Of a stretch of 64,000 nt of DNA, positions 3,908 to 46,220 are shown piece after piece. The stretch comes from a virus. The position numbers were made by a program, and so were the translations under genes. The stretch spans positions 7,830-71,829 of IMG/VR virus record IMGVR_UViG_3300030333_005399. The stretch is one strand, 5' to 3'. Each line of letters begins with the position of its first letter. Within the stretch, counting starts at the first letter, position 1. A model generated the notes under the pieces. It saw only the letters and a program-made list of their open reading frames with translations. It ran no database searches and was not told the origin of the DNA.

Positions 3908-4650
3908 TTGAATAAATCTCCTAGTTTACCAACGTCCAAATCTGATAAAGGTTCCTTTTTCGTTGTAGTACCCTTCATTATTTTGGGAAAATCTACACTA
4001 CTTTCCCCAGAAAGCATATACTGTTCCTTTTCCCACCTTGTTGCACAAGAATCCCCATAATGTATTATGAAACCAATATTTGTTTTTATTGCTTTCCATT
4101 CAGAACCTTCAAAAAAGTATGGCTTATTTGCATCTTCATACAATCCATCTGCCATTCTTAATCCTAAAAATTCTTGTTGTGACATTGGAATGTTAAACTG
4201 ATTTAACAACCAAAATGCTCTATCTGTAACTGTCATCCAATGTAAATCAGGATTATGATCATACATTCTTCCCCACTTTTTTGCTTTCCACTCATCGGGA
4301 TTAGTGATATAATAATCATTTTCCATATCTCCTATTTTTCCAAGATCATGAAACATTGCACAGAATATTACGTTTTCTTCGTTTATGTCACTAACGTGCA
4401 TATCCATTTTCTTAAACATTTCATAATATTCAAGAGACCACTTTATTACGTTTAACACATGTGCCACATATCCACCTGGAAAAGCATTATGAAACCATTT
4501 TGTTCCTGATGCTGGAGCCAATGTCATTCTATCTTCAAAATGTTCGTGTAAAAGTTTTATGTTTTTTAGCCTATCACCCTCAAAGGTGTCTTCTATAATC
4601 TTGTTGAGCCCATCCCAATTTTCTCGTATTTGCTCAGCAGTTATTCTCAT
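3904..4650 (-). CDS. HD-domain phosphohydrolase (YhaM-like)
   Basis: APAS...HNAFPGGYVAH and AMFHDLGKIG motifs. Confidence 0.85.
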   Translation of the reverse strand: MRITAEQIRENWDGLNKIIEDTFEGDRLKNIKLLHEHFEDRMTLAPASGTKWFHNAFPGGYVAHVLNVIKWSLEYYEMFKKMDMHVSDINEENVIFCAMFHDLGKIGDMENDYYITNPDEWKAKKWGRMYDHNPDLHWMTVTDRAFWLLNQFNIPMSQQEFLGLRMADGLYEDANKPYFFEGSEWKAIKTNIGFIIHYGDSCATRWEKEQYMLSGESSVDFPKIMKGTTTKKEPLSDLDVGKLGDLFK

Positions 4651-5162
4651 ACTTTCTCCTTAGTCCAATTTAATTTAAAAATATCTACGTTTGTAAACTT
4701 ATAAGGTTTGACGCTTTCAGATTCTAATATATCTACAACGTTAACCCATTTGGCATTCATAGTATCTCTAACTTGATAAACGCCATCTTTTCCATCTGTA
4801 CCTTTTAACAAAATAAAATCACCATAATCAAAAGGTCCACCCCATCTTGCAAGTAGATTACGTGATAATGCAACAAACTTATATCTAGATGCATGATGTA
4901 CTCTAATTCTAGTTCCATCAGCCGTTACATCTGGTGTATCGTCACACTGTATTGTGTTTGGCTGATACATCGTTACATCAACTTTGATACCATGTTGATA
5001 AAACTCTGATAACCTTTCAGACAACTCTTTATTTTGATTAGCAAGAAACTCATAATGTTGATGATATGTTTCTTTGTTTGCTTTCATAAAACGAGTTGCT
5101 ACATATCCGTTTATTGTGGTTATTAATGCTAATACTATTAGATACTTACTTAGGCTTTGCAT
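4647..5162 (-). CDS. Membrane-anchored/exported 3D-domain protein (putative peptidoglycan lytic enzyme)
   Basis: Signal/TM helix, then VTMY...TADGT...VALSR...YGD...VRDTM...VDIL pattern. Confidence 0.75.
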   Translation of the reverse strand: MQSLSKYLIVLALITTINGYVATRFMKANKETYHQHYEFLANQNKELSERLSEFYQHGIKVDVTMYQPNTIQCDDTPDVTADGTRIRVHHASRYKFVALSRNLLARWGGPFDYGDFILLKGTDGKDGVYQVRDTMNAKWVNVVDILESESVKPYKFTNVDIFKLNWTKEKV

Positions 5163-5189
5163 GGCGTGCTCCTATTCTTGATTTATTAA

Positions 5190-5232
5190 TAGAATCTACA
5201 CGTAAACCGGCATATATGTACATGCTTTTTTT
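5190..5232 (-). promoter_or_regulatory. Conserved phage promoter motif, copy 1
   Basis: Minus strand A-tract-GCATGTAC-N19-TAGATTCTA upstream of 4647..5162. Confidence 0.8.
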
Positions 5233-5736
5233 ACTTTTTTTCTAATTTTTTTGAAGCATAATCCGTCAATACATCTGGATAAAAGGCATGAATTATCAAA
5301 GCCATAGCACAAGACATAGCCCTTAACCAGTGACGCAAATACGTTGTATTCGTTTCTTTTAAATGTTTAAACAAAATCGTTAATTTGCTTCTTTAATTCT
5401 AGTTTCTGTTCCTGTCTAGACTTACGTTTTTTCGTTTTGATTATTTTAGTCGTGGGTATCGGAAAGTCAGACATCTTTGGTTTGTAGACTTTTTTCATTC
5501 TTGAGCCTCCTCAAACCAAGGAATATCATCCCATTGATCATCATCGTCAAGTTGTAGATCTTCTAATAAAAGCTCAATATCTGCCCAATCTTTATTCTCC
5601 AATGCAGATTCTAAACGTAATATTATATCTTCTTTTTTCATGATGTAGGTCTCCGTCGTAGTTGCATTTAAATACGCTAACGGTTGACTTACTGATGTAG
5701 ATTTTTTATCGTAACCAATTGGTAAATTAATTTGCA

Positions 5737-5985
5737 TTATGATACCTCTTCTAATCCTTCAATTAATTTTTCTATTTCATTTGGATTTGGAAACCTATTT
5801 TCTACTTCTTTACTGAATAATAAAGATGTTGCATTATTAGTATGGTGATACATTACTCTAAATATACCTCCACTTCCCTTAATTAATTCGGCGTCAATTC
5901 CAAATCTAGATTTTAATGATTCTCTTACCCTAAGAGCTTCTAAATCGTAGCCTCAGGATGTACAATATTCTATAGATATTTGCAT
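5737..5985 (-). CDS. SelW/SelT/SelH (Rdx family) selenoprotein, 82 aa, UGA at codon 11 (not in ORF track)
   Basis: MQISIEYCTS-U-GYDLEALRVRESLKSRFGIDAELIKGSGGIFRV...LFSKEVENRFPNPNEI; CxxU, GSGGxF and SK-x4-RFP Rdx motifs; fills the gap exactly with TAATG overlaps at both ends. Confidence 0.88.
5917..5952 (-). promoter_or_regulatory. Candidate bacterial SECIS hairpin
   Basis: After the UGA: GGCTAC-GATT-TAGAAG-CTCTT-AGGGT-AAGAG-AATC; G-containing apical loop begins 21 nt after the UGA. Confidence 0.6.
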
Positions 5986-6215
5986 TATGCCTCCGCTATT
6001 TCAAATCCAAATTGTTTAACCGTATTTTCTTTGCTCTTTTTCATTCCCTTATGATAGTCCATCAATAAGGCAATAAACATGTTGGAGCACTCAACAGGAA
6101 AATCCACCGGAGTATCAGAGACACTATCTAACAAATCCTTATGTTTGTTGTACAACATTCTTGTTTCTAAGACAAACATTTCCCAATCCAATATTCTATT
6201 TTCCATTTTTAACAT
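5985..6215 (-). CDS. Hypothetical protein
   Basis: Coupled to the selenoprotein start; true start probably the second Met (MENR). Confidence 0.5.
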   Translation of the reverse strand: MLKMENRILDWEMFVLETRMLYNKHKDLLDSVSDTPVDFPVECSNMFIALLMDYHKGMKKSKENTVKQFGFEIAEA

Positions 6216-6552
6216 CCCTATACATTTCTTCAGTGTTTGCTATTAATTCATCAATTTCCAAATTTAAATCCTTTATTACGTCACTGACATCGTTAACCTT
6301 AGCTGTCTTAGTTACAGCATATACATTTTTCCTATCTAAAGATTTAGATCCATAAATGTATGAAGCCTGTGGAAAATCAACTTGTTCATATTGTCCTTGA
6401 TGAAACCAAGGTTCTGGTTTTCCTGCTTCGAAACCTAAAGTACGTACATCTCCACCTGGCAAAAATCCTGTATCAGGTTCACCACTGTCTGCTCCATAGT
6501 TTGCAGAATTAGATGCGACTTCATTTATTTTACTCATATATCTAAATATCAT
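6196..6552 (-). CDS. Hypothetical protein
   Basis: Tightly packed ORF. Confidence 0.5.
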   Translation of the reverse strand: MIFRYMSKINEVASNSANYGADSGEPDTGFLPGGDVRTLGFEAGKPEPWFHQGQYEQVDFPQASYIYGSKSLDRKNVYAVTKTAKVNDVSDVIKDLNLEIDELIANTEEMYRDVKNGK

Positions 6553-6772
6553 TGATTTCCTGTTTAGGTGTATCTGGCATCTTTATTATTTTTATTTTCA
6601 TTTCTTCAAGCTTACCAATCCACTCATCTAACAGTTCTATTATTTTATTTTTATTAACTTCTACGTCGTCGTTATCTAGTATTTTATCCACCCATTTTTT
6701 ATAGATACCTAAAAATCCAGACAACCACACAGCGATTTCCGCTCGCTCTTCGGGCCATGATCTATTAGCCAT
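6542..6772 (-). CDS. Hypothetical protein
   Basis: AGGAG RBS, tight packing. Confidence 0.55.
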   Translation of the reverse strand: MANRSWPEERAEIAVWLSGFLGIYKKWVDKILDNDDVEVNKNKIIELLDEWIGKLEEMKIKIIKMPDTPKQEINDI

Positions 6773-6781
6773 GATGATCTC

Positions 6782-7222
6782 CTATTTAAAGAATAGTTTG
6801 TACTTTAGTTTCCTTGTAACAAACGAAACGAATAAACAAATGTGAAGAATCCAATCCATAACTGCGCTTTTAGTTGTAAACGTTACTTCATCCTCTATCA
6901 TTGTCTTATCATCTGATATTGCTTTTAATTTGTGCCTGTGTGACCAAAACTTTATACCTAAAAAGTTTCCATCAACCAGTATATCGTTAAAAAATAAATC
7001 AGATTTAGATGTTTTGTATCCAACAACTTTAAACTTTACAATGTCCCCAAAAAAATCTATTTTTGTAACGGCACCCCTCCTTATACCCTTATGATGAACT
7101 ACACTAGTTCCTTTAGGACACAAGTATTTTAACAATTCCCCATCTCTGTCAACAAATGCAGATTTTACATCTTTGAATGAAGAATTGACGTTAGTCTTGA
7201 TATGTAGAATGCCTCTTTTCAT
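6782..7222 (-). CDS. SRPBCC/START-like protein
   Basis: WSHRHKL...TMIEDEVTF pattern plus C-terminal helix. Confidence 0.45.
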   Translation of the reverse strand: MKRGILHIKTNVNSSFKDVKSAFVDRDGELLKYLCPKGTSVVHHKGIRRGAVTKIDFFGDIVKFKVVGYKTSKSDLFFNDILVDGNFLGIKFWSHRHKLKAISDDKTMIEDEVTFTTKSAVMDWILHICLFVSFVTRKLKYKLFFK

Positions 7223-7234
7223 ATAATATAAGTA

Positions 7235-8173
7235 TTAATTCTTGAGACTAAAATCACTAGGAAATATCCACTCGTATGGTATACGCTTAGTGGGACTTTT
7301 TACTCCGTGATTTATTGCTATATGTTTATAGAAAAAACAAGTTTTATCTTCAACGTTTAGAAACTTTTGTTCAACCATTGGGTTCCTAGAATCGTATATT
7401 AACTCATCCATCTGATTCAACCATAACTCCGCATTATAGTTTAATGGAACAAATTTACCATCATTATCTATATCATATTTAACCTTATTCATTAAATTTT
7501 TTCCACCAAATATCTGGTGTAATCCATCAAAATGACCCGTGCCTCCAAACAATACTGATTCTGGATCATAATCTTTGGGCCATGTCATTGCCATATATCT
7601 AGCAAAATTCTTACAAGGATACATTGGTGCCCTAAATCCCTGATGCTCTTTATAGTATTCACAAAATACCTTTGCCAGTTCCATCATAGTCCATCGTTTA
7701 GTTCTACTAGCTAACACTTCAGTCATGTAATCTGCACATCTCTTAGGTCCATCTAACAACCACTCTCTTACGTTTGTACCTTTAGGGTAATATATTTGGA
7801 ATAGATCACTACGAGCATGTCGTTCTGTTACAAACCTTTCTCTCAACGATTCTATTCCCTGATCTTTTAATGTTTTAAATGTTAACCAATGTTCATTGCT
7901 AAATGAGAACACCATTGTGTACCATATTCGCGTATGTAAATCATCTACGTTTCTCATCTCATCGCAATATGGGTGCTCATGCCAATGAAGTCTATGAGAG
8001 AATATCTGATAATCCTCTTTTAACAAATCATCTTCACGCTTATCAAACACCCTACAAAATTCAAAGAACTTTTCCTTTCGTTGGTCCAATGTCCAATCTT
8101 CCATCCAACTATGGATAGGTTTATTCCTGTTGTTTAATTCTACAGGTCTAGTATTTTCGTACACAATATTCAT
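7235..8173 (-). CDS. Putative DNA base-hypermodification enzyme, aGPT-Pplase/glycosylase-fold-like (paralog A)
   Basis: N-terminal DDLL motif, GGTGHFDGL hairpin-like motif and C-terminal EDKTCFFYK resembling the E-x2-LC-x3-K signature; similar layout to 20519..21679. Confidence 0.5.
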   Translation of the reverse strand: MNIVYENTRPVELNNRNKPIHSWMEDWTLDQRKEKFFEFCRVFDKREDDLLKEDYQIFSHRLHWHEHPYCDEMRNVDDLHTRIWYTMVFSFSNEHWLTFKTLKDQGIESLRERFVTERHARSDLFQIYYPKGTNVREWLLDGPKRCADYMTEVLASRTKRWTMMELAKVFCEYYKEHQGFRAPMYPCKNFARYMAMTWPKDYDPESVLFGGTGHFDGLHQIFGGKNLMNKVKYDIDNDGKFVPLNYNAELWLNQMDELIYDSRNPMVEQKFLNVEDKTCFFYKHIAINHGVKSPTKRIPYEWIFPSDFSLKN

Positions 8174-8181
8174 ATACTGGT

Positions 8182-8301
8182 TCAGTCCTTATTTTGTTTT
8201 TTAAAAATTTTGTCCCAATTTTCATCGTATCTTTTTTTATTTGATACACGACTCTTATCTCCTTTTCCTGCATTTGAGTACTTCTTTTTATTCTTTCCCA
8301 C
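8182..8301 (-). CDS. Small basic phage protein (39 aa, GTG start)
   Basis: MGKNKKKYSNAGKGDKSRVSNKKRYDENWDKIFKKQNKD; GKGD..R...Y..NW..IF pattern familiar from aquatic phages. Confidence 0.5.
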   Translation of the reverse strand: MGKNKKKYSNAGKGDKSRVSNKKRYDENWDKIFKKQNKD

Positions 8302-8671
8302 TACAAATGCCAACCCATTATTATGAAATAAAAATAAGCCAGACCTGCTAATATCCAGAGTGTTATACTCACGTATAGCTTGTTTATGTCAGCTTGAGTC
8401 GCAGCTCTTTTCTTTTTTTCTACTTTATCCCAATCACCCATACAAAACTCACAAATTTATATAGTCCATACCAAGCAATTGCTGATCCAACTGGCAACAA
8501 TACTAAGTAAACAAATACTCGCATAACCTTATCTAATAGTGTTTCTTCCATTATAATCCTAATGTGTCTATTAATGTCCAGGTATCAAGTGATATACCAA
8601 TGAATATTCCCATCATTAGACCAATACATATACCAATAATGATATAGCTAATCTTTTCTTCATCTGATAAA

Positions 8672-9301
8672 TTACGTATCACTTAATTCCCATCCATCGT
8701 TTAAAAATTTCTGTGCCTTCTTATACTTCAACACCTTTACTGAATCACCCTTTTTAATGGTAACCAATTCATTTCTACCAATTTTCTTTTCTGCACGATA
8801 AGTCATATCAATCTTCCTATCCATACAAACTATTCCATTTAAATGGTCAATCTCGTGTTGAACACAAACAGATTCCAACAGTCTTAGTTGTTCATCATCT
8901 CCATCTCCTTGTTCCCAACTACCTTTTCCATCTGTAGATGCAGGAGCTCCACTAAAATACCAATCGGCTTCTGATTGTTCTGTAGATATAATTACATCTC
9001 TGTACCTTTTTGTTTGCACTCCCTTACCTGGAAACGATAAGCACCCTTCATAATAACTTATTTCATTCTCTTTAGAAAGTATCTTGGGGTTTATTAGAAC
9101 AAGAGGCTCCCTAACATTAACCACGGCAACATTCGCATCGATACCGACTTGATTAGCTGCCAAGCCAATGCCATCTTTTCGTTTGTTAAGAATCTCAAAT
9201 AGTTCCCTAGCAATCTCTACTCCTTCTTCAACAGTAACGTTTCTTAATTTTTTGTTGATCACTGGATTGTGATCTTTATTACAATTAATTACCTGTTTCA
9301 T
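8672..9301 (-). CDS. def: Peptide deformylase
   Basis: GIGLAANQ, EGCLS, QHEIDHL motifs. Confidence 0.95.
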   Translation of the reverse strand: MKQVINCNKDHNPVINKKLRNVTVEEGVEIARELFEILNKRKDGIGLAANQVGIDANVAVVNVREPLVLINPKILSKENEISYYEGCLSFPGKGVQTKRYRDVIISTEQSEADWYFSGAPASTDGKGSWEQGDGDDEQLRLLESVCVQHEIDHLNGIVCMDRKIDMTYRAEKKIGRNELVTIKKGDSVKVLKYKKAQKFLNDGWELSDT

Positions 9302-26020: not shown

Positions 26021-27172
26021 TTAAGCTTCCTCGCTTACGTCTTCGAACAGCTCGTCGGATGAACCGTCGTCAGTGTACTTTTGCAGTAGCTGCTTGACGA
26101 AGGTTCTCTCCGACTCGACTCCACCGGCCGCATCGAACTTGGGAAGTACTGCTACCTCGGCAGACTCAGTCAGTGTAAACCCGTCGTAGAGCAAGCTTGC
26201 TATCTCTACTGTGGATCGGGTACTTATATGGGTGGATAACCTGCCCTCTTCCGAACTAGACTCGCTGCGTGTAATGAATGCAAGCTCTGCCACGTTTTCG
26301 ATTAATTCGGCTTTTACATTTGGGTATAACCCACTTAGTAAGCTTACTTCCTGTTCTTTGTTCAAGACGTCCATCTCAATCTGTGTGAACCTATCCAGTA
26401 GAGCTCTGTCGAGAACCCTTGTCGCGGTATACTCGTTACCGATGTTAGCAGTAGCGATAAAAGTAACGCCTTTTGCTACGTTAATAGTAGCCTGGCCGTC
26501 AGCCTCGTCTAACCTGAGATACCTCTGTCCTTCGTCTAGTACTGTCATAAGGATATTCCAAGCTTCAGGATGAGCTCTTGATAACTCGTCGAGTAATATA
26601 ACCGCGTTCTCAGTCTGGATAGCTTTAACGAAAAGCGCTTCTGAGAAGTAAGTGCCTTTCTCTTTGTTATAATGTGTATTACCGATAAGGGTAGCACGTG
26701 GATCCTGTGTGGAACCTAAGTTAAAGTAGAACTCAGGTCTGTCGAGAGATTTAACTAGACTCTTTGCAGCCATAGTCTTACCACACCCGGCGGGACCAGT
26801 CATCATAATGTTCTTACCTCTCATCGCAGATCTTACTAAGTACTTCCACTTAACCTCATTCATGATAAGACTATTTGGCTTAAGCTTGTAAGAACTGTGT
26901 ATATATGACAAAATGTCATTATGATCTTCGCTGACGTCTTCGGTAACCGTGACGACTACAGCTTGTTCATCCCACTCAGACTTAGTAGCAGGCCTCCAAA
27001 AGATACGCCCAGTGCTACCAGTCTTACGTACTGCATAACCAGTATCGGCTAAGATCTGTTTACGTTTATATGACGGCATCTCCTTAGAGTAGTCAGTGCC
27101 ATTTTGACATACTGCTCTGGTGCGACTGCCGACAGTTTCAATTTTTACTATTACATTTGTGTTTGAGTTCAT
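26021..27172 (-). CDS. MoxR/CbbQ/CobS-type AAA+ ATPase
   Basis: GPAGCGKT, LLDELSR, ATAN, DRALLDRF, STR. Confidence 0.92.
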   Translation of the reverse strand: MNSNTNVIVKIETVGSRTRAVCQNGTDYSKEMPSYKRKQILADTGYAVRKTGSTGRIFWRPATKSEWDEQAVVVTVTEDVSEDHNDILSYIHSSYKLKPNSLIMNEVKWKYLVRSAMRGKNIMMTGPAGCGKTMAAKSLVKSLDRPEFYFNLGSTQDPRATLIGNTHYNKEKGTYFSEALFVKAIQTENAVILLDELSRAHPEAWNILMTVLDEGQRYLRLDEADGQATINVAKGVTFIATANIGNEYTATRVLDRALLDRFTQIEMDVLNKEQEVSLLSGLYPNVKAELIENVAELAFITRSESSSEEGRLSTHISTRSTVEIASLLYDGFTLTESAEVAVLPKFDAAGGVESERTFVKQLLQKYTDDGSSDELFEDVSEEA

Positions 27173-28911: not shown

Positions 28912-30945
28912 CTAGCTAGCTAAGAATTTATTATTGAGAACCTTAGCTAAACTAATAAGATTTGTAGGATCAATGAATGTTGCATCTTGTCCGTACATTC
29001 TTTTGAAATCTCTTATTGAACTATCTCTCTCGTAACGACCATCAGTGATAAAGAATGATAAGATGTTAATTCCAGTCTTACGAAATTTATCAACTTGATT
29101 GCGAGTATGTTCGACTGCATCTCTTCCAGAGTAACTCATCTCACTGTTGCTGTAGTATGGCATACCGTCTGAAAGATTAAGGAAGAATGAATCTCTACCG
29201 TTTGAATCATTCATGATTTGCTTTTCGATAGCTGCGAAACATAGACCTTCGGGAGTAGTACCTTTAGCGTCTAAATACTTCCAATATTTTTTGATGTGTA
29301 CGATCTTGTTAACTTTTGAATCGTAGATTACTGCAAGTAATGGATCTTGTGAATCGTTTACTGTAGTTCTTAGGTTAACGTGTACGTGAATGTTACCAAC
29401 CATATCGGCTGCAGTTGCCATAGCAGCTGCACTTTTGATAGCGTTATTAAAGTTGCTACCACTCATAGATCCACTTGCATCGATTGAGATATGAAGATAA
29501 GCATCGTTGTACTTTGTAGTGAATGAGTGTGAGAATACGTTACCGTTGTTGAAACCTAACTCAGCAATTAATCTCTTGTCGATACGACCAGATTCTTGTC
29601 TTGTCCACTTAGTAGTACGTTCTTCGTTACGAACTTGTAACTTACGACCAAGTTTCTTACCAAGAAGGATACCATTTGATATGTTTGCTTCCATATCTTG
29701 TGATCTGTAACGTGACATGATTGAGTGAGCAATACTTCCATTTCTCCAACTACCTTCAACTTCGTCTACTAATTCTTGACCGATACGAGGTAGTACAACT
29801 ACTTTTACAGCTTTGTTAGTCTTATTACCGTAGTAGTCTTCAGCTTCTACTTCAACTTCTTTGTGATAAGCACCTGATTTCTCAACTGCACTAATTGCTT
29901 TTTGATCTTTCTTTGAAAGCTGTGTCTTCTTAATCTTACCGTCTGTGAACTGTTTTTGCTTTTCGATAGCTTTATCAATCTGATAGTGTTCTTTATCGGA
30001 AAGTTCTTGATCAGTTGAAGGAGCTGATTCACCTTCAGCTTCCATTGACTTATCGTCAGTATCAACTTCAGTACCACTACCATTAGATGAAGACGGTGAA
30101 TCTGAAGCAGTCTCAGCTCCATTTTCGTCGATGGTTGATTCACCGTCTTCTGAGGTTACATCTTCTTTTGGAGTCATATGCTTCATGATAATATCGTATA
30201 CGTCACACGCAACGTTGAAAGCATCTTCAGTCGAAGTCAGTCTAGAGATGTTTTTAAGATTAATAGTATTGTAAATGATTCTCAATCCTGGAAGAGCATC
30301 TAAGTCTGTATTAGGATTAGTAAAGTTAATGATACGAAACTCATAATGATCGTAGTCACTTGAATCACGATAGTCATTAGACTTAAGACCTTTATTGATA
30401 GCTCTGAAATTGAAATATTTATCATACATTGAGTGATAATAATTTTTGTATCCTGGAGCAGATTTAAATGTCATATAATCGATTCTACGATCTTCGATGT
30501 AGTTAAGAAGACTCTTGATTCTTGGAACCATATCTTGGTAATCTGACCATTCATCTGACTGATAAACAAGTCCACCGTAATCAATACCATATCTAGTATT
30601 GATATGAGTTTTAAGATCTCTTAAGAAATCAAAATCACTGTGTACAATATGACTACCTTCATGAAGAGCTAAACCAACTGAAGGATCAAAATTCTTATCG
30701 TTAAGATTAGAAGCTAGAGTTACAGTCTTACCATCGGTGTAACTATCTCTACCTTGAAATTTTACTTTAATATCACTACGACCAGTAACAATGTTGACAT
30801 AGTTAGAAATAGCTTTACGATAACCAGCGAGAGCGATTAAGTCTTTACCTTTTTTCTTGGTAACTTCTTCATCTCTCCACCAAGCATCGACACTACCTGT
30901 CATGTTGCCGATCCAATAGTTTGAGTTTTGATTTATTCTTGTCAT
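28912..30945 (-). CDS. CobT-like VWA protein with N-terminal metallopeptidase-like HExxH
   Basis: HEGSH, NYIEDRRI, acidic linker, MIDAS DASGSM, GTTP, SDGMP. Confidence 0.88.
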   Translation of the reverse strand: MTRINQNSNYWIGNMTGSVDAWWRDEEVTKKKGKDLIALAGYRKAISNYVNIVTGRSDIKVKFQGRDSYTDGKTVTLASNLNDKNFDPSVGLALHEGSHIVHSDFDFLRDLKTHINTRYGIDYGGLVYQSDEWSDYQDMVPRIKSLLNYIEDRRIDYMTFKSAPGYKNYYHSMYDKYFNFRAINKGLKSNDYRDSSDYDHYEFRIINFTNPNTDLDALPGLRIIYNTINLKNISRLTSTEDAFNVACDVYDIIMKHMTPKEDVTSEDGESTIDENGAETASDSPSSSNGSGTEVDTDDKSMEAEGESAPSTDQELSDKEHYQIDKAIEKQKQFTDGKIKKTQLSKKDQKAISAVEKSGAYHKEVEVEAEDYYGNKTNKAVKVVVLPRIGQELVDEVEGSWRNGSIAHSIMSRYRSQDMEANISNGILLGKKLGRKLQVRNEERTTKWTRQESGRIDKRLIAELGFNNGNVFSHSFTTKYNDAYLHISIDASGSMSGSNFNNAIKSAAAMATAADMVGNIHVHVNLRTTVNDSQDPLLAVIYDSKVNKIVHIKKYWKYLDAKGTTPEGLCFAAIEKQIMNDSNGRDSFFLNLSDGMPYYSNSEMSYSGRDAVEHTRNQVDKFRKTGINILSFFITDGRYERDSSIRDFKRMYGQDATFIDPTNLISLAKVLNNKFLAS

Positions 30946-32339: not shown

Positions 32340-32621
32340 TCACTTCTTTCCTCCCTTCTTATCAGCTGGTTTCAAACCTAAATCACCTAAAAAATCTGCC
32401 CATCCGACTTCATCCTCTGGTGGTGCTTGTGGAATTCCTAACGAATCTAACAATTCCATATAGCTCATTTTCTTTGTTACTTCACTATGTAACCTCCCTA
32501 GTTTTATTAACATATCTTCATTTTCTTGAAATAATTCCATCATCATTTCTATTGCCCATATACACTGATTTAACTGATGACCAGTGATTAAAAACATATC
32601 GTCTTTTCTATAATACTTCAC
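32340..32621 (-). CDS. Hypothetical protein
   Basis: Overlaps the upstream stop. Confidence 0.5.
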   Translation of the reverse strand: MKYYRKDDMFLITGHQLNQCIWAIEMMMELFQENEDMLIKLGRLHSEVTKKMSYMELLDSLGIPQAPPEDEVGWADFLGDLGLKPADKKGGKK

Positions 32622-33153
32622 TCAACAATATCCTTTGCTGCTTTTTATTATGTGAATGTACAAATGTTAAATGGTTGTTTATATTAGACTTGGTGATCAA
32701 TGTGATTTCGTCTTTAGAATATAGATCATTAACATAGTCGACACTCTTATGATAACCATCTTTGATAAACATTTTAATAGCAGTTCTCATAACATCTTTG
32801 ATTGAGCGGGTGGACGGAATCGAACCGACAGCATCAGCTTGGAAGGCTGAGGTATTACCACTATACGACACCCGCAGTTTTTTCTTTTCTTTGTTAGCGT
32901 AATAATCTTTTAACCATCTATCCCATGATCCACTACCTTTTGCAACCTTACTACCACCAACACTACGTCTATCCATTCTACGTAGACTATTTTTAGTATC
33001 ACTACTTACTGGTTGTACATAACCACCAGTCTTGTGTGGATATACGATGTGAGCTGAATACTTCTCCACATCACTACATTTAGTACATTCTTTGTATCCT
33101 AAATGTATCCTTGTGTGTGGCATAAACTTACCACACGATTTGCAATTATTCAT
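32608..33153 (-). CDS. Zinc-finger phage protein containing an in-frame tRNA sequence
   Basis: CKSC and CTKC; GAGG RBS and promoter motif; no stop codon across the tRNA. Confidence 0.7.
   Translation of the reverse strand: MNNCKSCGKFMPHTRIHLGYKECTKCSDVEKYSAHIVYPHKTGGYVQPVSSDTKNSLRRMDRRSVGGSKVAKGSGSWDRWLKDYYANKEKKKLRVSYSGNTSAFQADAVGSIPSTRSIKDVMRTAIKMFIKDGYHKSVDYVNDLYSKDEITLITKSNINNHLTFVHSHNKKQQRILLSEVL
32805..32875 (-). tRNA. tRNA-Gly(TCC), CCA not encoded
   Basis: GCGGGTGTCGTATAGTGGTAATACCTCAGCCTTCCAAGCTGATGCTGTCGGTTCGATTCCGTCCACCCGCT; perfect acceptor, D and anticodon stems, one T-stem mismatch. Confidence 0.88.
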
Positions 33154-39347: not shown

Positions 39348-40130
39348 TTATACGCTTTTATCATTAGTTTTAGGGTCATGTTTTATGTAATCTCCCCACT
39401 TCCACTTAGCGTACTCATGACACTCTATCTCTGTCAACCTATTTGCTTCCTCCTGTTGTGTAGACTTCTGAGCTAACGACACGAAATGGTAGAAGTGAGA
39501 TCGATATGATCTCATCATTCTTAAACCTGATAGCTTAGCCTTTAAAAAGAAATCCCAATCGGCGACTAACCCAGCTTGAGAAGGATAGTTTGTATCCCAT
39601 CCTCCAAGATATAAAAATGCGTTCTTAGAAATTAACACGGGAAATGTTGAACCTGTAACATCAGTTTCTTTCTCAGATATACTGTCTTCGTAATCCCAAA
39701 ATTTTTCCAAATCAAATGTTTTTGGATCTCGTCCTAAATCTTTTATGTGAAACTGTTCAAATATAGAATCGTACGGTTCTATATGATTTGGTGCTACAAC
39801 CCAATTTTCATTACAATATAAAACTAACTTCTTATCCCAATCTCTTGGAAATACGTTATCGTCATTAACAATTAAAACGTATGGTTGTGTTGCAGAACTA
39901 ACACCGATATTGATTGCATGTCCTGTACCGTAGTTTTCATCTAACACGATATACTTTACCGTTTCGTATTTGTCAAGTACTTCTTTATTTATATCATACG
40001 TACCATCTACGACTACTATAATTTCTTCGTAGTTAGTCTTCATTCCTTCTACTGCAGATCGTAAACAAAGATCTAAAGCTTCTGGTTCCTTATATGTTGG
40101 TATTATTACAGAAATCATTGTGCACTCCAA
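39348..40130 (-). CDS. GT2 glycosyltransferase
   Basis: ISVIIPTY, VVDG, NDD, ADWDF. Confidence 0.88.
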   Translation of the reverse strand: MECTMISVIIPTYKEPEALDLCLRSAVEGMKTNYEEIIVVVDGTYDINKEVLDKYETVKYIVLDENYGTGHAINIGVSSATQPYVLIVNDDNVFPRDWDKKLVLYCNENWVVAPNHIEPYDSIFEQFHIKDLGRDPKTFDLEKFWDYEDSISEKETDVTGSTFPVLISKNAFLYLGGWDTNYPSQAGLVADWDFFLKAKLSGLRMMRSYRSHFYHFVSLAQKSTQQEEANRLTEIECHEYAKWKWGDYIKHDPKTNDKSV

Positions 40131-40807
40131 TCAGTTAGTGGAGACAACCATGCCGTTTCTCCATGAGTGGAAAAACCTGGAATCGATGATATTAGTAAAT
40201 GTCCATTCTCTCTTAAATCTAAAAACATTTTAAAATCTTCTGGATATGTTGCAGTTGTCCACTTTCTTAGTATAGGTTCTGTCTCTCTCAACACATCCAC
40301 TCTTGCAGCAAATGTCATTGTTGTAGAGTTCGTTACTTTCCAATGACATGTCTTCGTTAAATAAACTCTTGTATCTTCAGCACCACCTTCACAGTATGGA
40401 TTACCACCTTTACTTGGATCTAAGTATTTGTCTGGATGATCGTACAATGCAACAAAAGATGCTCCGAGATCTATACCTTCTTGAAGTACTTCTCGAGCTT
40501 GTCCTTTGTGGAGATAATCGTTTTCTAAAAAGTAAATATAATCTTCACCTTTAAACTGATCCAATGCCATATCTAAAGCAATGTTAAATGTACCTGCGCC
40601 ATGACCAACCTGCACTTTAGTTATACTACTCTTTGGAAACTCTTTACGTATCATCTTCATAGTTCTTGGTCCACAACCATCTGCAATTACATGAATGTTA
40701 CTAGAACCAAACCTGAGTGATGCGTTAAATAAACATTTTTCGTTATTTATATAGTCTGGTTTTTCCTTTGCGTAACCACCATCAGATATTCTATATATTA
40801 CTTTCAT
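40115..40807 (-). CDS. GT-A fold glycosyltransferase
   Basis: IYFLENDYLH (DxD-like), PGFSTH. Confidence 0.7.
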   Translation of the reverse strand: MKVIYRISDGGYAKEKPDYINNEKCLFNASLRFGSSNIHVIADGCGPRTMKMIRKEFPKSSITKVQVGHGAGTFNIALDMALDQFKGEDYIYFLENDYLHKGQAREVLQEGIDLGASFVALYDHPDKYLDPSKGGNPYCEGGAEDTRVYLTKTCHWKVTNSTTMTFAARVDVLRETEPILRKWTTATYPEDFKMFLDLRENGHLLISSIPGFSTHGETAWLSPLTDWSAQ

Positions 40808-41939
40808 TGTATGTCCTCAATAATTCTTCTATGTATATGTTTTTAGCACAAAAATCTATTCCACCAGCAAGTGTTGTCTTTATAAATTCTCTATCTTGTT
40901 CGAAACTGTTAACTATTTCTATCATGTCGACTTCAGTTGGATCAACCAAATAATTGTAATCGTAAAAATTACCGACCTGTCCAGTTCCTTCAATTACTAT
41001 CGTTCTCTTACCAAACTGTATAGGTTTAAACGCCAACGTTGATAATGCGCTCACCACGACATTCGAATTTGCAACTAATGTGTTTATATCATCGCTATCT
41101 ACAACAACCTTTCCATTTGGAATCAAATCCATTACGTACTCAATATTCTTTTCTCTGTTTGGATCGTCTAATCGTGACTTAATTTTTGTGACTATTGGCA
41201 ATCCATATTCTTGTGACATCTGTTCTAATTGCGTATCTCTCACAAACTGTTCATCTAATGCTCTAGAAAATGGATGAGATCTGTTACCTAAAAAATTAGG
41301 TATAACCAATATGTGTTTGTCTACATATCCGATACTAGTTTGATGTTCGTAATATAAATCAAACATTAAATCGTTAGCTGGTATTCCACCAACTAAAACA
41401 TCGTTTGTATCGAAAACTTGCGAGAATATTTGTTTCTCTTTTTCCCCAAATACAAATATTTTGTCAAATGATTTCTTCATTCCATTATGACCGAATATTC
41501 CAGATTCGTTGAACTCTTGATTTCCATGGTGATTACCAATAACCAAACATCCGTTTTCTTTTGCCTTTCTATACAACGCTGGCATCTTTAGTTCTGGCAT
41601 TTCCTTACAGTCATCAAATATTATTAATGGAAAATCTTGTACATCAACCCAATCATTTAAGTCATCTGCAAATCTATCCCCGTGAAACCTAAATCCTGGA
41701 CCATTTATGATATTCTTACAGTATACTTTGTACTTTTCCATATCTACAACTCTAGGATCTGAATCTCCATTCCACGGAGTCTTTGAACTATACTCACCTA
41801 TCCTGAAGATTGTAATCTCAAATGTTTTAGATAATTTTGGAATTATTGGTAATATCTTTTCGCATACTCTTGGGTTGCTGAGTATCAATAAACATTTAGA
41901 GTATGGAGGATTTTTGAATACAAACTTTTTATCCGACAT
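40791..41939 (-). CDS. GT-B-like capsule/sialyl- or glycerophosphotransferase-like protein
   Basis: HHG, FVFGE, GGIP, VVSALSTL; cluster context. Confidence 0.45.
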   Translation of the reverse strand: MSDKKFVFKNPPYSKCLLILSNPRVCEKILPIIPKLSKTFEITIFRIGEYSSKTPWNGDSDPRVVDMEKYKVYCKNIINGPGFRFHGDRFADDLNDWVDVQDFPLIIFDDCKEMPELKMPALYRKAKENGCLVIGNHHGNQEFNESGIFGHNGMKKSFDKIFVFGEKEKQIFSQVFDTNDVLVGGIPANDLMFDLYYEHQTSIGYVDKHILVIPNFLGNRSHPFSRALDEQFVRDTQLEQMSQEYGLPIVTKIKSRLDDPNREKNIEYVMDLIPNGKVVVDSDDINTLVANSNVVVSALSTLAFKPIQFGKRTIVIEGTGQVGNFYDYNYLVDPTEVDMIEIVNSFEQDREFIKTTLAGGIDFCAKNIYIEELLRTYNESNI

Positions 41940-42654
41940 GTCTCATCGCCCTCGGTAGTGTAGCAAACTCATCAGTTTTCTCTAAATTATTTTGTGGTTG
42001 ATGAGCTATAAATGTTTTATTAATTCTGTTAACCTTAATTTCTGGCATCTTCCATAGAGAATAACAAAAAGATATTTGATCTTCTGTGTTCCACTTAGCC
42101 GTCTCTTCAAACCACATCTCATTAAATTTTACAACGTTGTCATTGTTTCGTCTAAACAATATTCCATTCTCGTACAAGCCACGTCCTTCTGCGTAACCAT
42201 CTTTTTTGTATTGTTCTGCTTGATTTATGACCATCTCAGCAGTATCTCTCTTTGTTCCTGGTCTCTGAAGAGCTGCTTGAGTTTCTTGATATATGCAAGT
42301 CCTATCACTGTGTGAATGTACAGCTACATCATGGTTTTCTAAATACTTCTCGGCTAACGATACTGGATCGTATGCGAAATATATCTGTGCGTCCATCCAA
42401 AGCCATGCATCATAATCTGGTAACACTCTATGTGGAGCAGTTTTTATTTTTCTAGCTGACCATCTACCATCTCTCCAAACATCTGTCTTTCTTACATCCC
42501 AAAAATCTTCACTTATGTAGTCACTGTTTGTGTAGCAAATGTAATCTACACCATCCTTATCGTGTTCATAATGAATTATGTCACCGTATAATTTGTTTGG
42601 ATCATCAGTGTATAAAGCAGTAACAACTGCTAGCTTCATGACATTCCCCTCCAT
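41929..42654 (-). CDS. DUF616-like glycosyltransferase
   Basis: YICYT, KTAPH, WMDA, HSDRTCIYQE, DQISF. Confidence 0.75.
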   Translation of the reverse strand: MEGNVMKLAVVTALYTDDPNKLYGDIIHYEHDKDGVDYICYTNSDYISEDFWDVRKTDVWRDGRWSARKIKTAPHRVLPDYDAWLWMDAQIYFAYDPVSLAEKYLENHDVAVHSHSDRTCIYQETQAALQRPGTKRDTAEMVINQAEQYKKDGYAEGRGLYENGILFRRNNDNVVKFNEMWFEETAKWNTEDQISFCYSLWKMPEIKVNRINKTFIAHQPQNNLEKTDEFATLPRAMRHVG

Positions 42655-43283
42655 GTTGCTCCGTTATTGGTGTAATAGTGATGAGCTCTAAGTTCTGGCC
42701 AATATAAGAATTCCTCTCCTCTACCAACCATATCTATTGCCCAATACCTATCTTCCTTACCCGAATATGATTCTGGCATAGGATACTGCATTAATGTATC
42801 ACGTCTATAAAAGCAAAAAGCATTATGTAGAAACAACCTATCTTCTATTTTGGAATGCATGTTAACTACGTCTTTTTCTCCGAAGTGTGACCAAATATAA
42901 CGAGGTGTAATTTTCTTTCCCATGTAAATCGGAATTTGCTTTCCAAACACTGCACAATATGCATTTAGTTTCTTATAAAAGTTCCAACCAACTAAAGCCT
43001 TTATTTGACAATGAGCAGATAAAACTAAACATACTTCTTGATTGGCTTCCTTTACACCCATGTTTATAGATCTTCCAGGGGTGTACTTGTCTTTTTCAAT
43101 TGATATTATTTTAATATCTGCTCTGTCAACGAATAAATTTACTACTCCTAACGTATCATCAGTTGATTCATTGTCTACAACAATTATTTCTGGATCGTTT
43201 AGATGATCCAAACATGATTGTATTGCAAAACCTATATGATCTTGTTCGTTCTTAGAACGTATTATAACCGATACATTATCCAT
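42636..43283 (-). CDS. GT2 glycosyltransferase
   Basis: VSVIIRSKNE, VDNESTDDT, EDRYW. Confidence 0.88.
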   Translation of the reverse strand: MDNVSVIIRSKNEQDHIGFAIQSCLDHLNDPEIIVVDNESTDDTLGVVNLFVDRADIKIISIEKDKYTPGRSINMGVKEANQEVCLVLSAHCQIKALVGWNFYKKLNAYCAVFGKQIPIYMGKKITPRYIWSHFGEKDVVNMHSKIEDRLFLHNAFCFYRRDTLMQYPMPESYSGKEDRYWAIDMVGRGEEFLYWPELRAHHYYTNNGATWRGMS

Positions 43284-44076
43284 CGAATCTCCCAGTCATT
43301 ATGTCTCTTGCTTCCTGTTCACACGGTAAATAATTATCACCATGACTGTAATTCATTTTTTCATACATGTCAATATAATCCCTTAACTTTCTTAGATCTT
43401 CTGGTAAAATGCTAAACTTATTATCCCTACCAGGTAAGGATTGATCTATCGTAAAATGTTTTTCTATTACGGTTGGATTGTATCCTAATGCTACCTTTGA
43501 ACCTTCTATTCCTGGTGTATGATCGCTGTACCCTACTTCTGGAAAATATTTCCTTAGTGAGGCAATACGTGGTAGATTACAGTTTTCATAGTCTAATGGA
43601 TACGCAGATATACAATGCAATATTACAAACTTTCCAACATCTAAACTTCTTAACGTATCTCGTATTTCATTAACTGAAGACGTACCAGTCGATAAGTATA
43701 TTTTATCAAAGTTATAGTAACAGTAAGTTATGAGTTCCACGTTACGTGATTCGAAGCTAGCTATTTTTACAGTGTCGACTCCTATACTAGCTAGTAGTTT
43801 TGCATCTTCAATACTAAACACTGATGAGAAGAACGGTATACCGTATGATTCACTAAAATTCTTTAATGATATATGGTCGTCTTTAGATAATTCTGCTTTC
43901 TTGTATATTTCTAACCTACCGTCATCGTCCCATGGTCCATGTTTAAGTCTTTGAACCGACCACGTTTGAAACTTTACAAAGTCAGCACCATTATCCTTTG
44001 CCTTTTGTATCATTTGTTTCGCTAAAGCTAAATCACCCATGTGATTCCAACCTATTTCTGCTATTATCTTTGTCAT
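43276..44076 (-). CDS. neuB: N-acetylneuraminate/nonulosonate synthase (short form, no C-terminal SAF domain)
   Basis: IAEIGWNHMG, VKFQ, KIAS, LHCISAYP, GYSDH, IEKHFT. Confidence 0.92.
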   Translation of the reverse strand: MTKIIAEIGWNHMGDLALAKQMIQKAKDNGADFVKFQTWSVQRLKHGPWDDDGRLEIYKKAELSKDDHISLKNFSESYGIPFFSSVFSIEDAKLLASIGVDTVKIASFESRNVELITYCYYNFDKIYLSTGTSSVNEIRDTLRSLDVGKFVILHCISAYPLDYENCNLPRIASLRKYFPEVGYSDHTPGIEGSKVALGYNPTVIEKHFTIDQSLPGRDNKFSILPEDLRKLRDYIDMYEKMNYSHGDNYLPCEQEARDIMTGRFDG

Positions 44077-44618
44077 TGTATTGCCTCTAAATCTTCTTTG
44101 TAATGTATGTCTACTGCTGAATCTTTAATGATACCCATTCTTTTCGAAACTGTTCCGTTTACTAAGTCATCGTATTTGAATATTCTGACAGATCCACTTC
44201 TTTTATATTTTTCATTCACTGTAACCAGGTCGTCGTATTTATTCGATACCATATAATCCAAACATTCGTCTAATGTGTTACTACGATTTGGGTTATCTGG
44301 TTGGAGACACACTACATAATCGTAATACGTATCTGAATTTTTTACGACAGCTAAATATACTTCTACTACCTCAACATCTCCACAAAGCGAAGAGTCCCGA
44401 TAATGATGATACACTCCACGTGGTATCATCGAAGCTAATTTTGCACTTTCGGTAGATACAACTATAGTATTTAAATGACGTGTGTCCTTTGCGTAATCTA
44501 TACTATGATGAAACAGAGGTTTGCCATCTAATTGCTGAATGTTCTTTTCTTTTAGTCTCGTGGAATCTAACTTAGCTGGTATGATCGTTAATATTTTATA
44601 ACGTCGTTTGCTTTTCAT
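44073..44618 (-). CDS. neuA: Acylneuraminate cytidylyltransferase family
   Basis: IIPAKLDSTRLKEKN, VSTE, LQPDNP, VDIH. Confidence 0.8.
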   Translation of the reverse strand: MKSKRRYKILTIIPAKLDSTRLKEKNIQQLDGKPLFHHSIDYAKDTRHLNTIVVSTESAKLASMIPRGVYHHYRDSSLCGDVEVVEVYLAVVKNSDTYYDYVVCLQPDNPNRSNTLDECLDYMVSNKYDDLVTVNEKYKRSGSVRIFKYDDLVNGTVSKRMGIIKDSAVDIHYKEDLEAIQ

Positions 44619-45285
44619 GAAATTGTCCTCTTTTAGATTTGTCTATCCATAAATCGTGTTCGCTCATCGATTCGTATTCTAATTCTACACAGTTTGGTAT
44701 TATATCCCTTTGATAGTTCTTCCACATAGAATAGAAAGCATTTAGGTAGTATGAGTTTTTATCGACTACCTTATCAAATACTTCTCCAGCTTTTGAATCT
44801 AATCTACAGTAATGATAACGTTCTACGTCAAACATTGTTTCCTGTAATATCCAATCACTTAATCTACCATTCTTTCTGTACACTGATTTTATAATATCTG
44901 ACCACTTTCGATGCATAAAAATAATCATATCATCTTCAGTTGCCAAACTGTGTATATGTGGTGTCATAGCTGGAGCTTGTACAACAATTCTATCCTTATT
45001 TCGTATTATATCTGTAAACTTATCAACATCAATAACATCAAATGCATCTTCATCTACCACTTCCCATCCCATGGTCCATGCGAATGCTTTAGATGTAAAT
45101 GTAGTTCCACTTCTCTGTGGACCAACAATGATTATTCTTTTGCAATCCTTTATTGACCACCTCTCATGATAAACCATAGGATCCATTTCTATTTGAAACT
45201 GGTCTATCTCTTCAAATGCTTTTTGTATAGTTTCCTCATCTAACCATACTTTTGGTGGTAATTCTAGAGTTTGTTTATTGCCCAT
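44596..45285 (-). CDS. Sulfotransferase-like P-loop protein
   Basis: IIVGPQRSGTT, R-x7-S, LEYE. Confidence 0.7.
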   Translation of the reverse strand: MGNKQTLELPPKVWLDEETIQKAFEEIDQFQIEMDPMVYHERWSIKDCKRIIIVGPQRSGTTFTSKAFAWTMGWEVVDEDAFDVIDVDKFTDIIRNKDRIVVQAPAMTPHIHSLATEDDMIIFMHRKWSDIIKSVYRKNGRLSDWILQETMFDVERYHYCRLDSKAGEVFDKVVDKNSYYLNAFYSMWKNYQRDIIPNCVELEYESMSEHDLWIDKSKRGQFHEKQTTL

Positions 45286-46220
45286 GTGTATGCCTTTTCT
45301 TGTCCTTCAAATGTCATACCTCCTATGTGAGGCGTTATTATAACGTTATGTCCATCTCTAGCTGCGTTAACAATTGGTGAATCGTTTATGTCTCCAAACT
45401 CATCTTCTAAAACATCAGTTCCATAACCTAAAATTTTACCAGATTTTAAACCATCTACAACATCTGGTTCTTTTACTATTTCTCCTCTCGAAGTATTAAT
45501 CAAATAAAAACCTTTTTTTGATTTGTTAATCAATTCTTTGTTTACCATTCCTATTGTTGTATCATTAACATGAACGTGTAAACTTATAACATCACAATCC
45601 GTAAACATTTTTTCTAACGTACAGTTGTTATAATGCAACGTTGGATCATTCATTATGTCAGGATCTCTATCATAAATATATACGTCAATCCCGAAAGCAT
45701 GAAAATAATTAGCCATCATTGAACCCAATCTTCCATAACCTATAATTCCAGCCTTCATTCCTCTCATCTGTCTTCCAACATATGGTGTGTAGCTCCATTC
45801 ACCTTTTATCACAGATTGAGATGACTTTGTAATGTTTCTGAGTAAGTCACATGTTAACCCAAACGCCAACTCTGCAGTTGAAGGCAAATGTTGTAATAAA
45901 TCATGATCGTTAGTTAAGGATAAAACGTTTATGTTCCATAATTTACACCAATCCATGTCTATGTGATTCAACCCTGTAGAACATGTTAATATTGTTTTTA
46001 TTCCATTACTTAATATTCTTGAACCTATCTTAAATTGCTGTTCATTGGGATTGCATATAAGTGTGTCTATTTTTGCTCTTTGTACAAAATTTACAACGTT
46101 CCCTTCAGTCACTTTACCTTGTAAATAGTACACATTATTGTCACCTAATTTTTTATCAATGAGCTTCTTTACGTTTGGTAAGTGATCAACTGGTGTTATA
46201 ACTGCTGCTCTCATGTCCAT
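45264..46220 (-). CDS. D-2-hydroxyacid dehydrogenase family
   Basis: GIIGYGRLG, INTSRG, TPHIGG. Confidence 0.9.
   Translation of the reverse strand: MDMRAAVITPVDHLPNVKKLIDKKLGDNNVYYLQGKVTEGNVVNFVQRAKIDTLICNPNEQQFKIGSRILSNGIKTILTCSTGLNHIDMDWCKLWNINVLSLTNDHDLLQHLPSTAELAFGLTCDLLRNITKSSQSVIKGEWSYTPYVGRQMRGMKAGIIGYGRLGSMMANYFHAFGIDVYIYDRDPDIMNDPTLHYNNCTLEKMFTDCDVISLHVHVNDTTIGMVNKELINKSKKGFYLINTSRGEIVKEPDVVDGLKSGKILGYGTDVLEDEFGDINDSPIVNAARDGHNVIITPHIGGMTFEGQEKAYTWAINKL

Follow-up and report, generated by a model that had tools for sequence, protein, structure and literature searches.

Results

A SelW-like frame with an in-frame TGA

The window analysed here, a stretch of 64,000 nucleotides (nt) comprising positions 7830–71829 of the 71,829-nt IMG/VR virus record IMGVR_UViG_3300030333_005399, carries on its minus strand a gene for a SelW-like protein of the Rdx family with a single TGA codon inside its frame. 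Judging from the conservation of this codon, the protein family and a candidate hairpin downstream of it, we consider it highly probable that the UGA encodes selenocysteine (Sec) in the natural host.

The frame (5985..5737) reads MQISIEYCTS-TGA-GYDLEALRVRESLKSRFGIDAELIKGSGGIFRVMYHHTNNATSLLFSKEVENRFPNPNEIEKLIEGLEEVS-TAA, its only TGA lying at 5955-5953, and exactly fills the 249-nt gap between two open reading frames (ORFs), each of which it joins in a TAATG stop/start overlap (Table 1). Both the fit and the coupling at either end had been claimed in an initial annotation made from the sequence alone, and our re-reading agreed with it. Translation table 11 leaves a fragment of 38 amino acids (aa; 5853..5737) alone in the gap, and database gene calls are truncated or have W at this column, which bears out the statement of that annotation that standard gene callers miss the gene. 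No signal equivalent to a Shine–Dalgarno sequence was found directly after the TGA, and the ATG of the downstream ORF is preceded, at 8 nt, by a GAGG of its own.

Conservation of the UGA column

Five DNA copies of the clade were available: the window, an IMG/VR contig (L002/L020) and three metagenome contigs (L003–L005), the relatives being 74–95% identical to the window at the protein level. TGA occupied the column in 5/5 copies, and none contained a second stop or a frameshift. Between the three diverged lineages of the clade the number of synonymous substitutions per site (dS) was 0.57–0.76 and the ratio of non-synonymous to synonymous substitutions (dN/dS) 0.19–0.26. In codons 2–10, ahead of the TGA, synonymous change per site exceeded non-synonymous change in most pairs, with 0–3 changes each. 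TGA was also present in all seven further viral SelW loci that were read (L022, L023, L054, L057, L059, L060 and L116); TGT or TGG, each one mutation away, occurred in 0/12 phage-type DNA copies. These patterns of substitution show that the frame is conserved under purifying selection, with UGA at the position of Sec or Cys. The initial annotation had expected Cys or TGA at this column in homologues and had named scattered stops, frameshifts or Trp as the contrary case; every readable DNA copy has TGA, and the readable relatives contain none of these.

The protein record looks different at first sight. In a large protein database the clade was represented by 13 clusters with 101 member sequences; eight of these clusters are full length with W at the column and five start at a Met after it, and the gene calls include 68-aa and 49-aa forms beginning at internal Met codons. 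The W of the eight proteins, which were read from protein entries, most likely stems from gene calling with TGA translated as W. A search of 1.84 billion representatives returned 65 matches, among which the clade formed a single 50% cluster and the next matches were at most 56% identical. We aligned 32 of the 65, choosing near full-length ones by eye and leaving out long, fused and short ones; of these relatives, 13 have C at the column, 18 have W and one has S. One further database protein (P0017) joins a SelW-like N-terminus (residues 1–47) to a 25-residue C-terminal piece that occurs alone in more than 60 IMG/VR contigs (L051–L053, L055, L056, L061–L130). It is probably a chimeric or frameshifted gene call, and its common piece may adjoin the SelW gene in some phages.

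Bacterial relatives have the same codon. TGA was found at the column in 12/12 bacterial loci fetched from metagenome-assembled genomes by means of the peptide pattern MQISIEYC, and selB scored above its curated cut-off in all three of the corresponding genomes that were tested. In a sample of Acidimicrobiia, 51 of 401 genomes had a match (32–49% identity); a single TGA was present in 51 of the 52 matched places, and it lay at the CxxU column in all eight matches that were read. The differences listed for contigs of the sequencing runs described below include none at 5953–5955, a result that we did not count as evidence, as contigs drop rare variants.

Family and predicted fold

For profile searches, Cys was substituted for the TGA-encoded residue. 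The protein matched Pfam Rdx (PF10262) with 60.5 bits (cut-off 22.6) over residues 2–76 of 82, thus spanning the TGA, and NCBIfam TIGR02174 (CXXU_selWTH) with 40.2 bits (cut-off 34.2). The best-scoring NCBIfam model was NF041051 (SelTWH_Campy; 65.6 bits over residues 3–75); membership in this equivalog was ruled out, the score being below its curated cut-off of 88. A search of PHROGs gave no family for the protein.

A profile of the relatives matched eight Protein Data Bank entries of Rdx or SelW proteins. The AlphaFold2 model (predicted local distance difference test 94.1; predicted template modelling score 0.83) has the order beta1 (2–8), CxxU, alpha1 (14–28), beta2, beta3, beta4, alpha2 of a thioredoxin-like fold, and in a Foldseek search with it ranks 1–15 were all SelW-related (2fa8, 2ojl, 2oka, 2obk, 2p0g, 3dex; template modelling (TM) scores 0.75–0.78; best 2fa8, TM 0.78). 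C8 was invariant in 32/32 aligned relatives. The clade has an insertion of 7–8 residues (HHTNNATS) in the beta3–beta4 hairpin that the other relatives lack. Taken by its profile scores across the TGA, with which the predicted fold agrees, the protein qualifies as a SelW-like member of the Rdx family with CxxU between beta1 and alpha1, as the initial annotation had proposed.

A candidate selenocysteine insertion sequence downstream of the UGA

A hairpin CTCTT-AGGGT-AAGAG had been noted downstream of the TGA, and we located it at 5936-5922. It can pair as 5 base pairs (bp) with the 5-nt loop AGGGU, at a spacing of 21 nt, or as 6 bp with the 3-nt loop GGG, at 22 nt. The consensus for bacterial selenocysteine insertion sequence (bSECIS) elements, as worded in the legend to Fig. 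2 of a recent review (PMC13188914), asks for a loop of 3–9 nt with G in its first two positions, a stem of 4–16 bp, a spacing of 16–37 nt between UGA and loop, and a minimum free energy (MFE) of at most −7.5 kcal/mol. The candidate agrees with the bSECIS rules on loop size, G position, the pattern N1-G-(G/U)-N-N2, stem length and spacing. Its folding energy is −4.2 kcal/mol for the hairpin alone, −6.1 for 31 nt and −6.8 for 48 nt; for 60 nt from the UGA, −8.7 is reached in the window and L003 through non-conserved pairs, and L002, L004 and L005 give −5.0 to −5.7. One pair of the possible lower stem has a compensatory change, but the same pair is mismatched in two of the five copies, so that support for this stem is weak. 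Loosely bSECIS-like hairpins follow 372 of the 1369 TGA triplets on the strand, and the local folding energy of the site falls within the best 4.8% of them. The hairpin alone is unremarkable, and its weight derives from comparison with relatives.

We compared 17 sequences, five from the phage clade and 12 bacterial. In the majority of them the MFE fold has a hairpin at one common distance from the UGA; its apical loop is A-G-(G/U)-G-U in the clade and, in most of the bacteria, A-G-U-U-U or A-G-U-C-U. In an ungapped alignment, 82.4% of the cells of an 8-pair helix were paired, compared with 68.6% in shuffles (0/500) and 37–51% in slid registers. Through P0019, a representative protein 49% identical to that of the window, we found two further viral contigs, L022 (131 kb) and L023, whose SelW-like genes are 99% and 59% identical to P0019, both with TGA; their hairpins are GCCCUU-AGU-UUAAGGG and GCUCUU-AGU-UUAAGAG, respectively. 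With these two added (19 sequences), a 6-pair core was paired in 93.0% of cells versus 76.3% in shuffles (0/500) and 39–53% when slid. The viral contigs L054, L057, L059, L060 and L116 have the stem CUCUC/GAGAG. Over all 12 phage-type sequences, which form 11 distinct rows, 66/66 cells were paired (slid registers 26–65%), and in the 11 rows two of the pairs change on both sides between UA and CG, whilst none is broken on one side only.

When the sites of L022 and L023 were combined with the 12 bacterial ones in a covariance model (model R2), 5955–5911 ranked first of eight matches in the window (21.8 bits, E 0.023). A model of the 12 bacterial sites alone (R1) was rejected as independent proof; with filters off it gave the site 9.3 bits (E 4.6, rank 6/8). 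Among four- to six-fold degenerate codons with an invariant residue in the five clade copies, 0/4 vary inside the hairpin compared with 17/23 elsewhere (Fisher P 0.012). The aligned sequences show that the hairpin covaries and that it occupies the register found in SelW-like selenoprotein genes of bacteria.

An alternative 81-nt MFE fold, in which the UGA region pairs with CUUAGGGU, was dropped because a G-to-U change in 3/5 relatives breaks the pairing. Rfam returned nothing at the hairpin site, which says little since, according to the available text of a preprint (10.64898/2026.04.03.716425), bacterial SECIS elements are poorly represented in that database. Elsewhere in the window, at 60544-60562 (+) and antisense to the DNA polymerase gene, a hairpin AGCUUCC-AGUUU-GGAAGAU scored 15.3 and 15.9 bits (E 0.3) with the two SECIS models, matching their stem-loop with no UGA context aligned; this match is probably due to chance.

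Strains with and without the gene

Twenty sequencing runs, annotated as marine or seawater metagenomes and drawn from seven studies, contained at least 58% of the sampled words of 5300–6400. Contigs of four of these runs, from four studies, were aligned to the window. The contig of run X2 spans 5300–6387 with the gene and one other letter. In the contigs of the remaining three (X5, X6 and X17), position 5728 is joined directly to 5977, the 248 nt between them being absent, and the flanks differ from the window in 0 or 1 letters; the uncovered parts in these runs (5744–5891) were read only together with the bridging joint. In this short form the stop of the upstream ORF and a TAATG are retained; the downstream gene is coupled directly to the upstream gene, and its protein is unchanged and in frame. 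These observations show that the gene is an accessory cassette, bounded by a 12-nt repeat that spans the TAATG junctions (Table 1).

The same runs also contained diverged relatives that carry the gene, in records that cover 5914–5990 with 7–8 other letters; among the differences listed in them, 5947, 5950 and 5959 are synonymous third-position changes. In the window the SelW frame starts with MQI, as does the downstream ORF; all four clade relatives start with MK(I/V). Because of this resemblance we infer that recombination at the junction shaped the SelW copy of the window; either gain or loss of the gene may have come first.

Selenocysteine machinery and possible hosts

Profiles of selA, selB and selD found nothing on the 71.8-kb record, and the absence of sel genes that the initial annotation reported for the window thus holds for the whole record. 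The sole match of the tRNA-Sec model on the record was a tRNA-Gly(UCC) at 32805-32875 (-) inside the listed ORF 32608-33153 (35.4 bits; cut-off 47). In three other SelW-bearing viral records, all incomplete (131, 31 and 14 kb), neither selB nor tRNA-Sec was found, tRNA-Gly(UCC) again being the sole match of the tRNA-Sec model; such a tRNA-Gly(UCC), as the best and sub-threshold match, lies at L049:1499-1571 and at L050:1500-1572. In the window, the other 7.9 kb of the record and the scanned stretches of relatives, tRNA-Gly(UCC) and tRNA-Ala were detected but no tRNA with anticodon UCA. The use of host Sec machinery is consistent with the absence of selA, selB, selD and tRNA-Sec from the record of the window, and of selB and tRNA-Sec from the three others, all four being incomplete, but is unproven.

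The nearest cellular homologues are 33–43% identical to the window protein and scattered over many phyla. The available text of the preprint mentioned above describes universal Sec machinery in Actinomarina, a low-GC marine genus, and selC in 0/135 genomes of Pelagibacter (10.64898/2026.04.03.716425). Five Acidimicrobiia genomes of ~0.7–1.1 Mb and 31% GC (L038, L039, L040, L042 and L044) encode an 81-aa SelW-like selenoprotein (MKIKLEFCIV-U-NY...), 32–38% identical to that of the window, whose hairpin CCGUGC-AGUUA-GUACGG lies ~5 nt closer to the UGA than in other bacteria and phages. This protein may be the uncharacterised 78-aa family of the Actinomarina preprint. By sequence identity there was no sign of a recent donor in the Acidimicrobiia sample; small low-GC Acidimicrobiia are possible hosts but are not indicated as such.

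Two relatives have a full-length transfer-messenger RNA (tmRNA) gene ~240 nt downstream of SelW (L020:2019-2441 and L005:2428-2850; RF00023, 73.6 and 73.3 bits, gathering cut-off 47), with the tag GNDQPTYAYAA as predicted by ARAGORN. Neither Rfam nor ARAGORN found a tmRNA in the window at 4600–5750. Against 167 genomes of one phylum, matches of the relatives' tmRNA were limited to the last 30–36 nt. The tag may point to Bacteroidota.

The replicon and neighbouring features

The virus record, the baseplate wedge proteins (phrog_6, 219, 261 and 43) in the remaining 7.9 kb and a family B DNA polymerase in the window (phrog_262, E 1e-97) identify the replicon as a phage, an uncultured marine myovirus that is distantly T4-like. 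The gp43 proteins of an Ochrobactrum phage and T4-like cyanophages share 27% identity with this polymerase. The GC content is 35% and the long ORFs are all on one strand. Among the known phages in INPHARED (50,697 deposited records) there were 0 DNA matches for window positions 5000–7000 and 0 tblastn matches for the SelW protein.

Table 1. Positions of the SelW-like gene, its proposed signals and adjoining features in the window
Feature	Positions	Strand	Remarks
SelW-like (Rdx family) selenoprotein gene (proposed)	5737..5985	-	82 codons + TAA; motif C8-T-S-U11
In-frame UGA, proposed selenocysteine codon	5953..5955	-	Codon 11
Candidate SECIS upper hairpin CUCUU-AGGGU-AAGAG	5922..5936	-	Starts 17 nt 3' of the TGA
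Possible lower stem, 5948-5943 with 5921-5916	5916..5948	-	Encloses the hairpin; 6-nt bulge on the 5' side; RNAalifold consensus of five clade copies
Shine–Dalgarno-like GCGGAGG	5990..5996	-	4 nt before the ATG; TAGCGGAGGC conserved in 5/5 clade copies
12-nt direct repeat CATAATGCAAAT, upstream copy	5978..5989	-	Upstream stop, SelW start codon and next five bases CAA AT
12-nt direct repeat CATAATGCAAAT, downstream copy	5730..5741	-	SelW stop and start of next ORF
Upstream 76-aa ORF	5985..6215	-	Overlaps SelW frame by TAATG; no family match
Downstream 80-aa ORF, acidic C-terminus	5495..5737	-	Overlaps SelW frame by TAATG; no family match

A scan of 5000–8800 found promoter-like sites fewer than in shuffles and no minus-strand terminator, and we regard it as not informative. 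Further along the minus strand, there is a 210-nt gap at 8420-8629, otherwise uncovered, that a frame with TGA as its codon 15 fills; the more likely product is a membrane peptide of 43 aa whose first residue is the Met following this TGA. Two genes (26021-27172 and 28912-30945) encode a CobS-like AAA ATPase (phrog_249) and a protein with a weak CobT-like match (phrog_5298); a CobS/CobT-like pair is seen in marine T4-like phages. From 39348 to 53370 there are ~16 tightly overlapping ORFs, followed at 53986-56758 by two glycosyltransferase-like genes (phrog_2170), and on the basis of a family scan of three of its ORFs the region 39348-56758 looks like a sugar or surface-modification block.

Discussion

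Proposed decoding of the UGA and evidence against it

We propose that these 249 nt function as a gene and encode a SelW-like thiol/selenol oxidoreductase of the Rdx family. Ribosomes would start at the ATG at 5985, behind the conserved GGAGG. At the UGA of codon 11, SelB of the host, carrying Sec-tRNA(Sec), would bind the hairpin 17–31 nt downstream and insert selenocysteine, yielding a protein of 82 residues in which a C-x-x-U centre lies between beta1 and alpha1. Nothing but the mRNA signal would be supplied by the phage, and the host would have to provide selA, selB, selC and selD, barring their presence in the unsequenced ~60% of the phage genome. To judge from its family, the product may serve as a small redox protein while the phage infects its host. 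Genes of the thioredoxin or glutaredoxin type are found in T4-like phages.

Several points weigh against selenocysteine as the product of this codon. Thermodynamically the hairpin is weak (−4.2 kcal/mol) and for the most part falls short of the published bSECIS energy limit, and its loop in the window is AGGGU where most relatives have AGU(U/G)U. At default filter settings the site goes undetected by model R1. Both model R2 and the pair counts draw on coding sequence homologous to their target, so that neither is free of relatedness. The 12 bacterial loci, having been chosen by peptide pattern, are a biased sample. The provision of Sec machinery by the host is an assumption, and with a record completeness of ~40% (CheckV) sel genes could sit in the remaining ~60%. 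The gene is dispensable, since strains without it are common, and 0 of the 20 runs were RNA runs.

Other readings of the locus

A more far-reaching version of the proposal would make the cassette a mobile selenium-gated module: its weak AU-rich SECIS would be tuned to the SelB of one host group, the efficiency of UGA decoding, and with it the selenium status of the host, would determine the number of ribosomes arriving at the next gene of the TAATG-coupled chain, and recombination between the repeats would toggle the dependence among strains that are otherwise identical. If this were true, the cassette would mark a host that uses selenocysteine, and part of the 'most abundant marine selenoprotein family' of ocean metagenomes would be viral. 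We regard this version as unlikely. A selenium-dependent downstream gene is not supported by our data, the idea being weakened by the GAGG of that gene and by its direct coupling to the upstream gene in SelW-less strains.

Among the readings that dispense with selenocysteine, readthrough of the UGA by near-cognate tRNA-Trp or tRNA-Cys, or by a phage suppressor tRNA, survives best, although we give it a low probability. It would yield CxxW or CxxC, and it would suit a host devoid of Sec machinery, a contig on which Sec genes were not found, the weakness of the hairpin and the W in database gene calls; abundant marine hosts, Pelagibacter for one, are moreover reported to be without selC in the available preprint text (10.64898/2026.04.03.716425). 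However, the UGA stands at the Sec/Cys position and the TGA-bearing bacterial members come from genomes with selB. The hairpin matches the bacterial register and covaries, no tRNA with a UCA anticodon was found in the stretches scanned, and a sense codon (TGT or TGG) only one mutation away was used in none of the 12 phage-type copies.

It is very unlikely that the UGA is a true stop and the frame what is left of a captured SelW gene that has fallen silent or is decaying towards loss. The strains that lack precisely this gene in three of four runs would fit such decay, but dN/dS has stayed at 0.19–0.26 over a dS of 0.57–0.76, the five lineage copies have neither a second stop nor a frameshift, and the start region and its Shine–Dalgarno sequence are conserved. 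The same layout recurs in seven further viral contigs at 40–60% identity, and a single TGA with a paired hairpin would not persist so long in a remnant.

We attach still less weight to a stop at the UGA, releasing a 10-residue peptide, combined with translation of the C-terminal part from an internal start. The 68-aa and 49-aa forms of the gene callers do begin at internal Met codons, but a Met at codon 15 is present in only some relatives, the first in-frame ATG after the TGA in the window is codon 45, and no Shine–Dalgarno sequence was found before internal Met codons. A product without beta1 and CxxU would also lose the active site of the family, and the changes in codons 2–10 are mostly synonymous, few as they are (0–3 per pair).

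Finally, a code with TGA as a sense codon in the phage or its host (table 4 or 25) would raise the ORF coverage of the minus strand from 89.4% to 92.3% but is practically negligible as an explanation, as 28 of the 88 minus-strand ORFs of at least 80 aa end at TGA (TAA 40, TAG 20) with the next stop within 0–41 codons and in many cases a tightly abutting gene, Trp is encoded by TGG 346 times, and, of seven TGA-containing frames with more than 100 nt otherwise uncovered when TGA is read as sense, that of SelW, the sole one scanned against families, gives a family match. The genetic code of the replicon is standard, with TGA as an ordinary stop.

Implications of a proposed phage-borne selenoprotein gene

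A bacterial-type selenoprotein gene on a phage would show that the UGA recoding of a host can be exploited with just a 15-nt hairpin. Under selenocysteine decoding the host must be a selenocysteine user, which would turn the gene into a host-range marker and argue against selC-less hosts such as Pelagibacter. Some SelW-like genes in marine surveys may be viral, and phage gene callers systematically truncate such genes or misread the codon as W. The exact presence or absence of the cassette between otherwise identical strains offers a natural comparison for the role of the gene in the phage.

Comparison with known systems

The phage gene shares with bacterial SelW-like selenoproteins the fold, the length, CxxU between beta1 and alpha1 and the UGA column, as well as a hairpin with an A-G-U-type apical loop 21–22 nt after the UGA. 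It differs in being carried by a phage, in its identity of at most 43% to the 12 bacterial loci, in the HHTNNATS insertion of its clade, and in an AU-rich and much weaker stem (CUCUU/AAGAG versus the bacterial GCCGCC/GGCGGC). In the available text of an ocean survey, SelW-like proteins are the top selenoprotein family of marine metagenomes, with 11.3% of selenoprotein genes, and viral sequences are none or very few outside the ribonucleotide reductase II, plastocyanin and Cu-Zn superoxide dismutase families (PMC9402790).

SelW-like CxxU genes occur on several other viral contigs. The seven that we read have low GC, CxxU and the TGA column in common with the window, and L054 and L057 also the motif CTSUGY of its clade. 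They are ~40–60% identical to the clade and lack HHTNNATS; their hairpin, GCUCU(U/C)-AGUUU-(A/G)AGAGA, lies at the same offset but has the loop AGUUU where the clade has AG(G/U)GU. With the bacterial SECIS elements that SelB reads inside an ORF, of which E. coli fdhF is the prototype, the phage gene shares a stem-loop just 3' of the UGA within the coding sequence. Measured against the bSECIS consensus, the window and L003 attain the energy limit only by way of long-range pairs that are not conserved, and binding of SelB to the hairpin of the window is putative.

Virus-borne selenoprotein genes that rely on host Sec machinery are known from poxviruses, in the glutathione peroxidase (GPx) of molluscum contagiosum virus and fowlpox virus, the latter with its SECIS inside the coding region as in the phage gene (PMC8310308). 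The poxvirus case differs in that these are eukaryotic viruses with a eukaryotic SECIS, SBP2 and a protein of the GPx family; the available text of this review of recoding names poxvirus GPx genes only and no phage (PMC8310308). In a 2026 review of the prokaryotic selenoproteome, a term search found the words phage, virus and viral absent (PMC13188914), and we found no report of a phage selenoprotein in the main texts of the literature searched. Basilisk-like Bacillus phages likewise have one part of the Sec system in their genomes, in the available text a tRNA-SeC with no selenoprotein gene reported (PMC6145125), whereas the phage of the window presents a proposed selenoprotein gene and no tRNA-Sec on its contig. 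The protein family and the recoding mechanism are known; the presence of such a gene on a phage is the new part.

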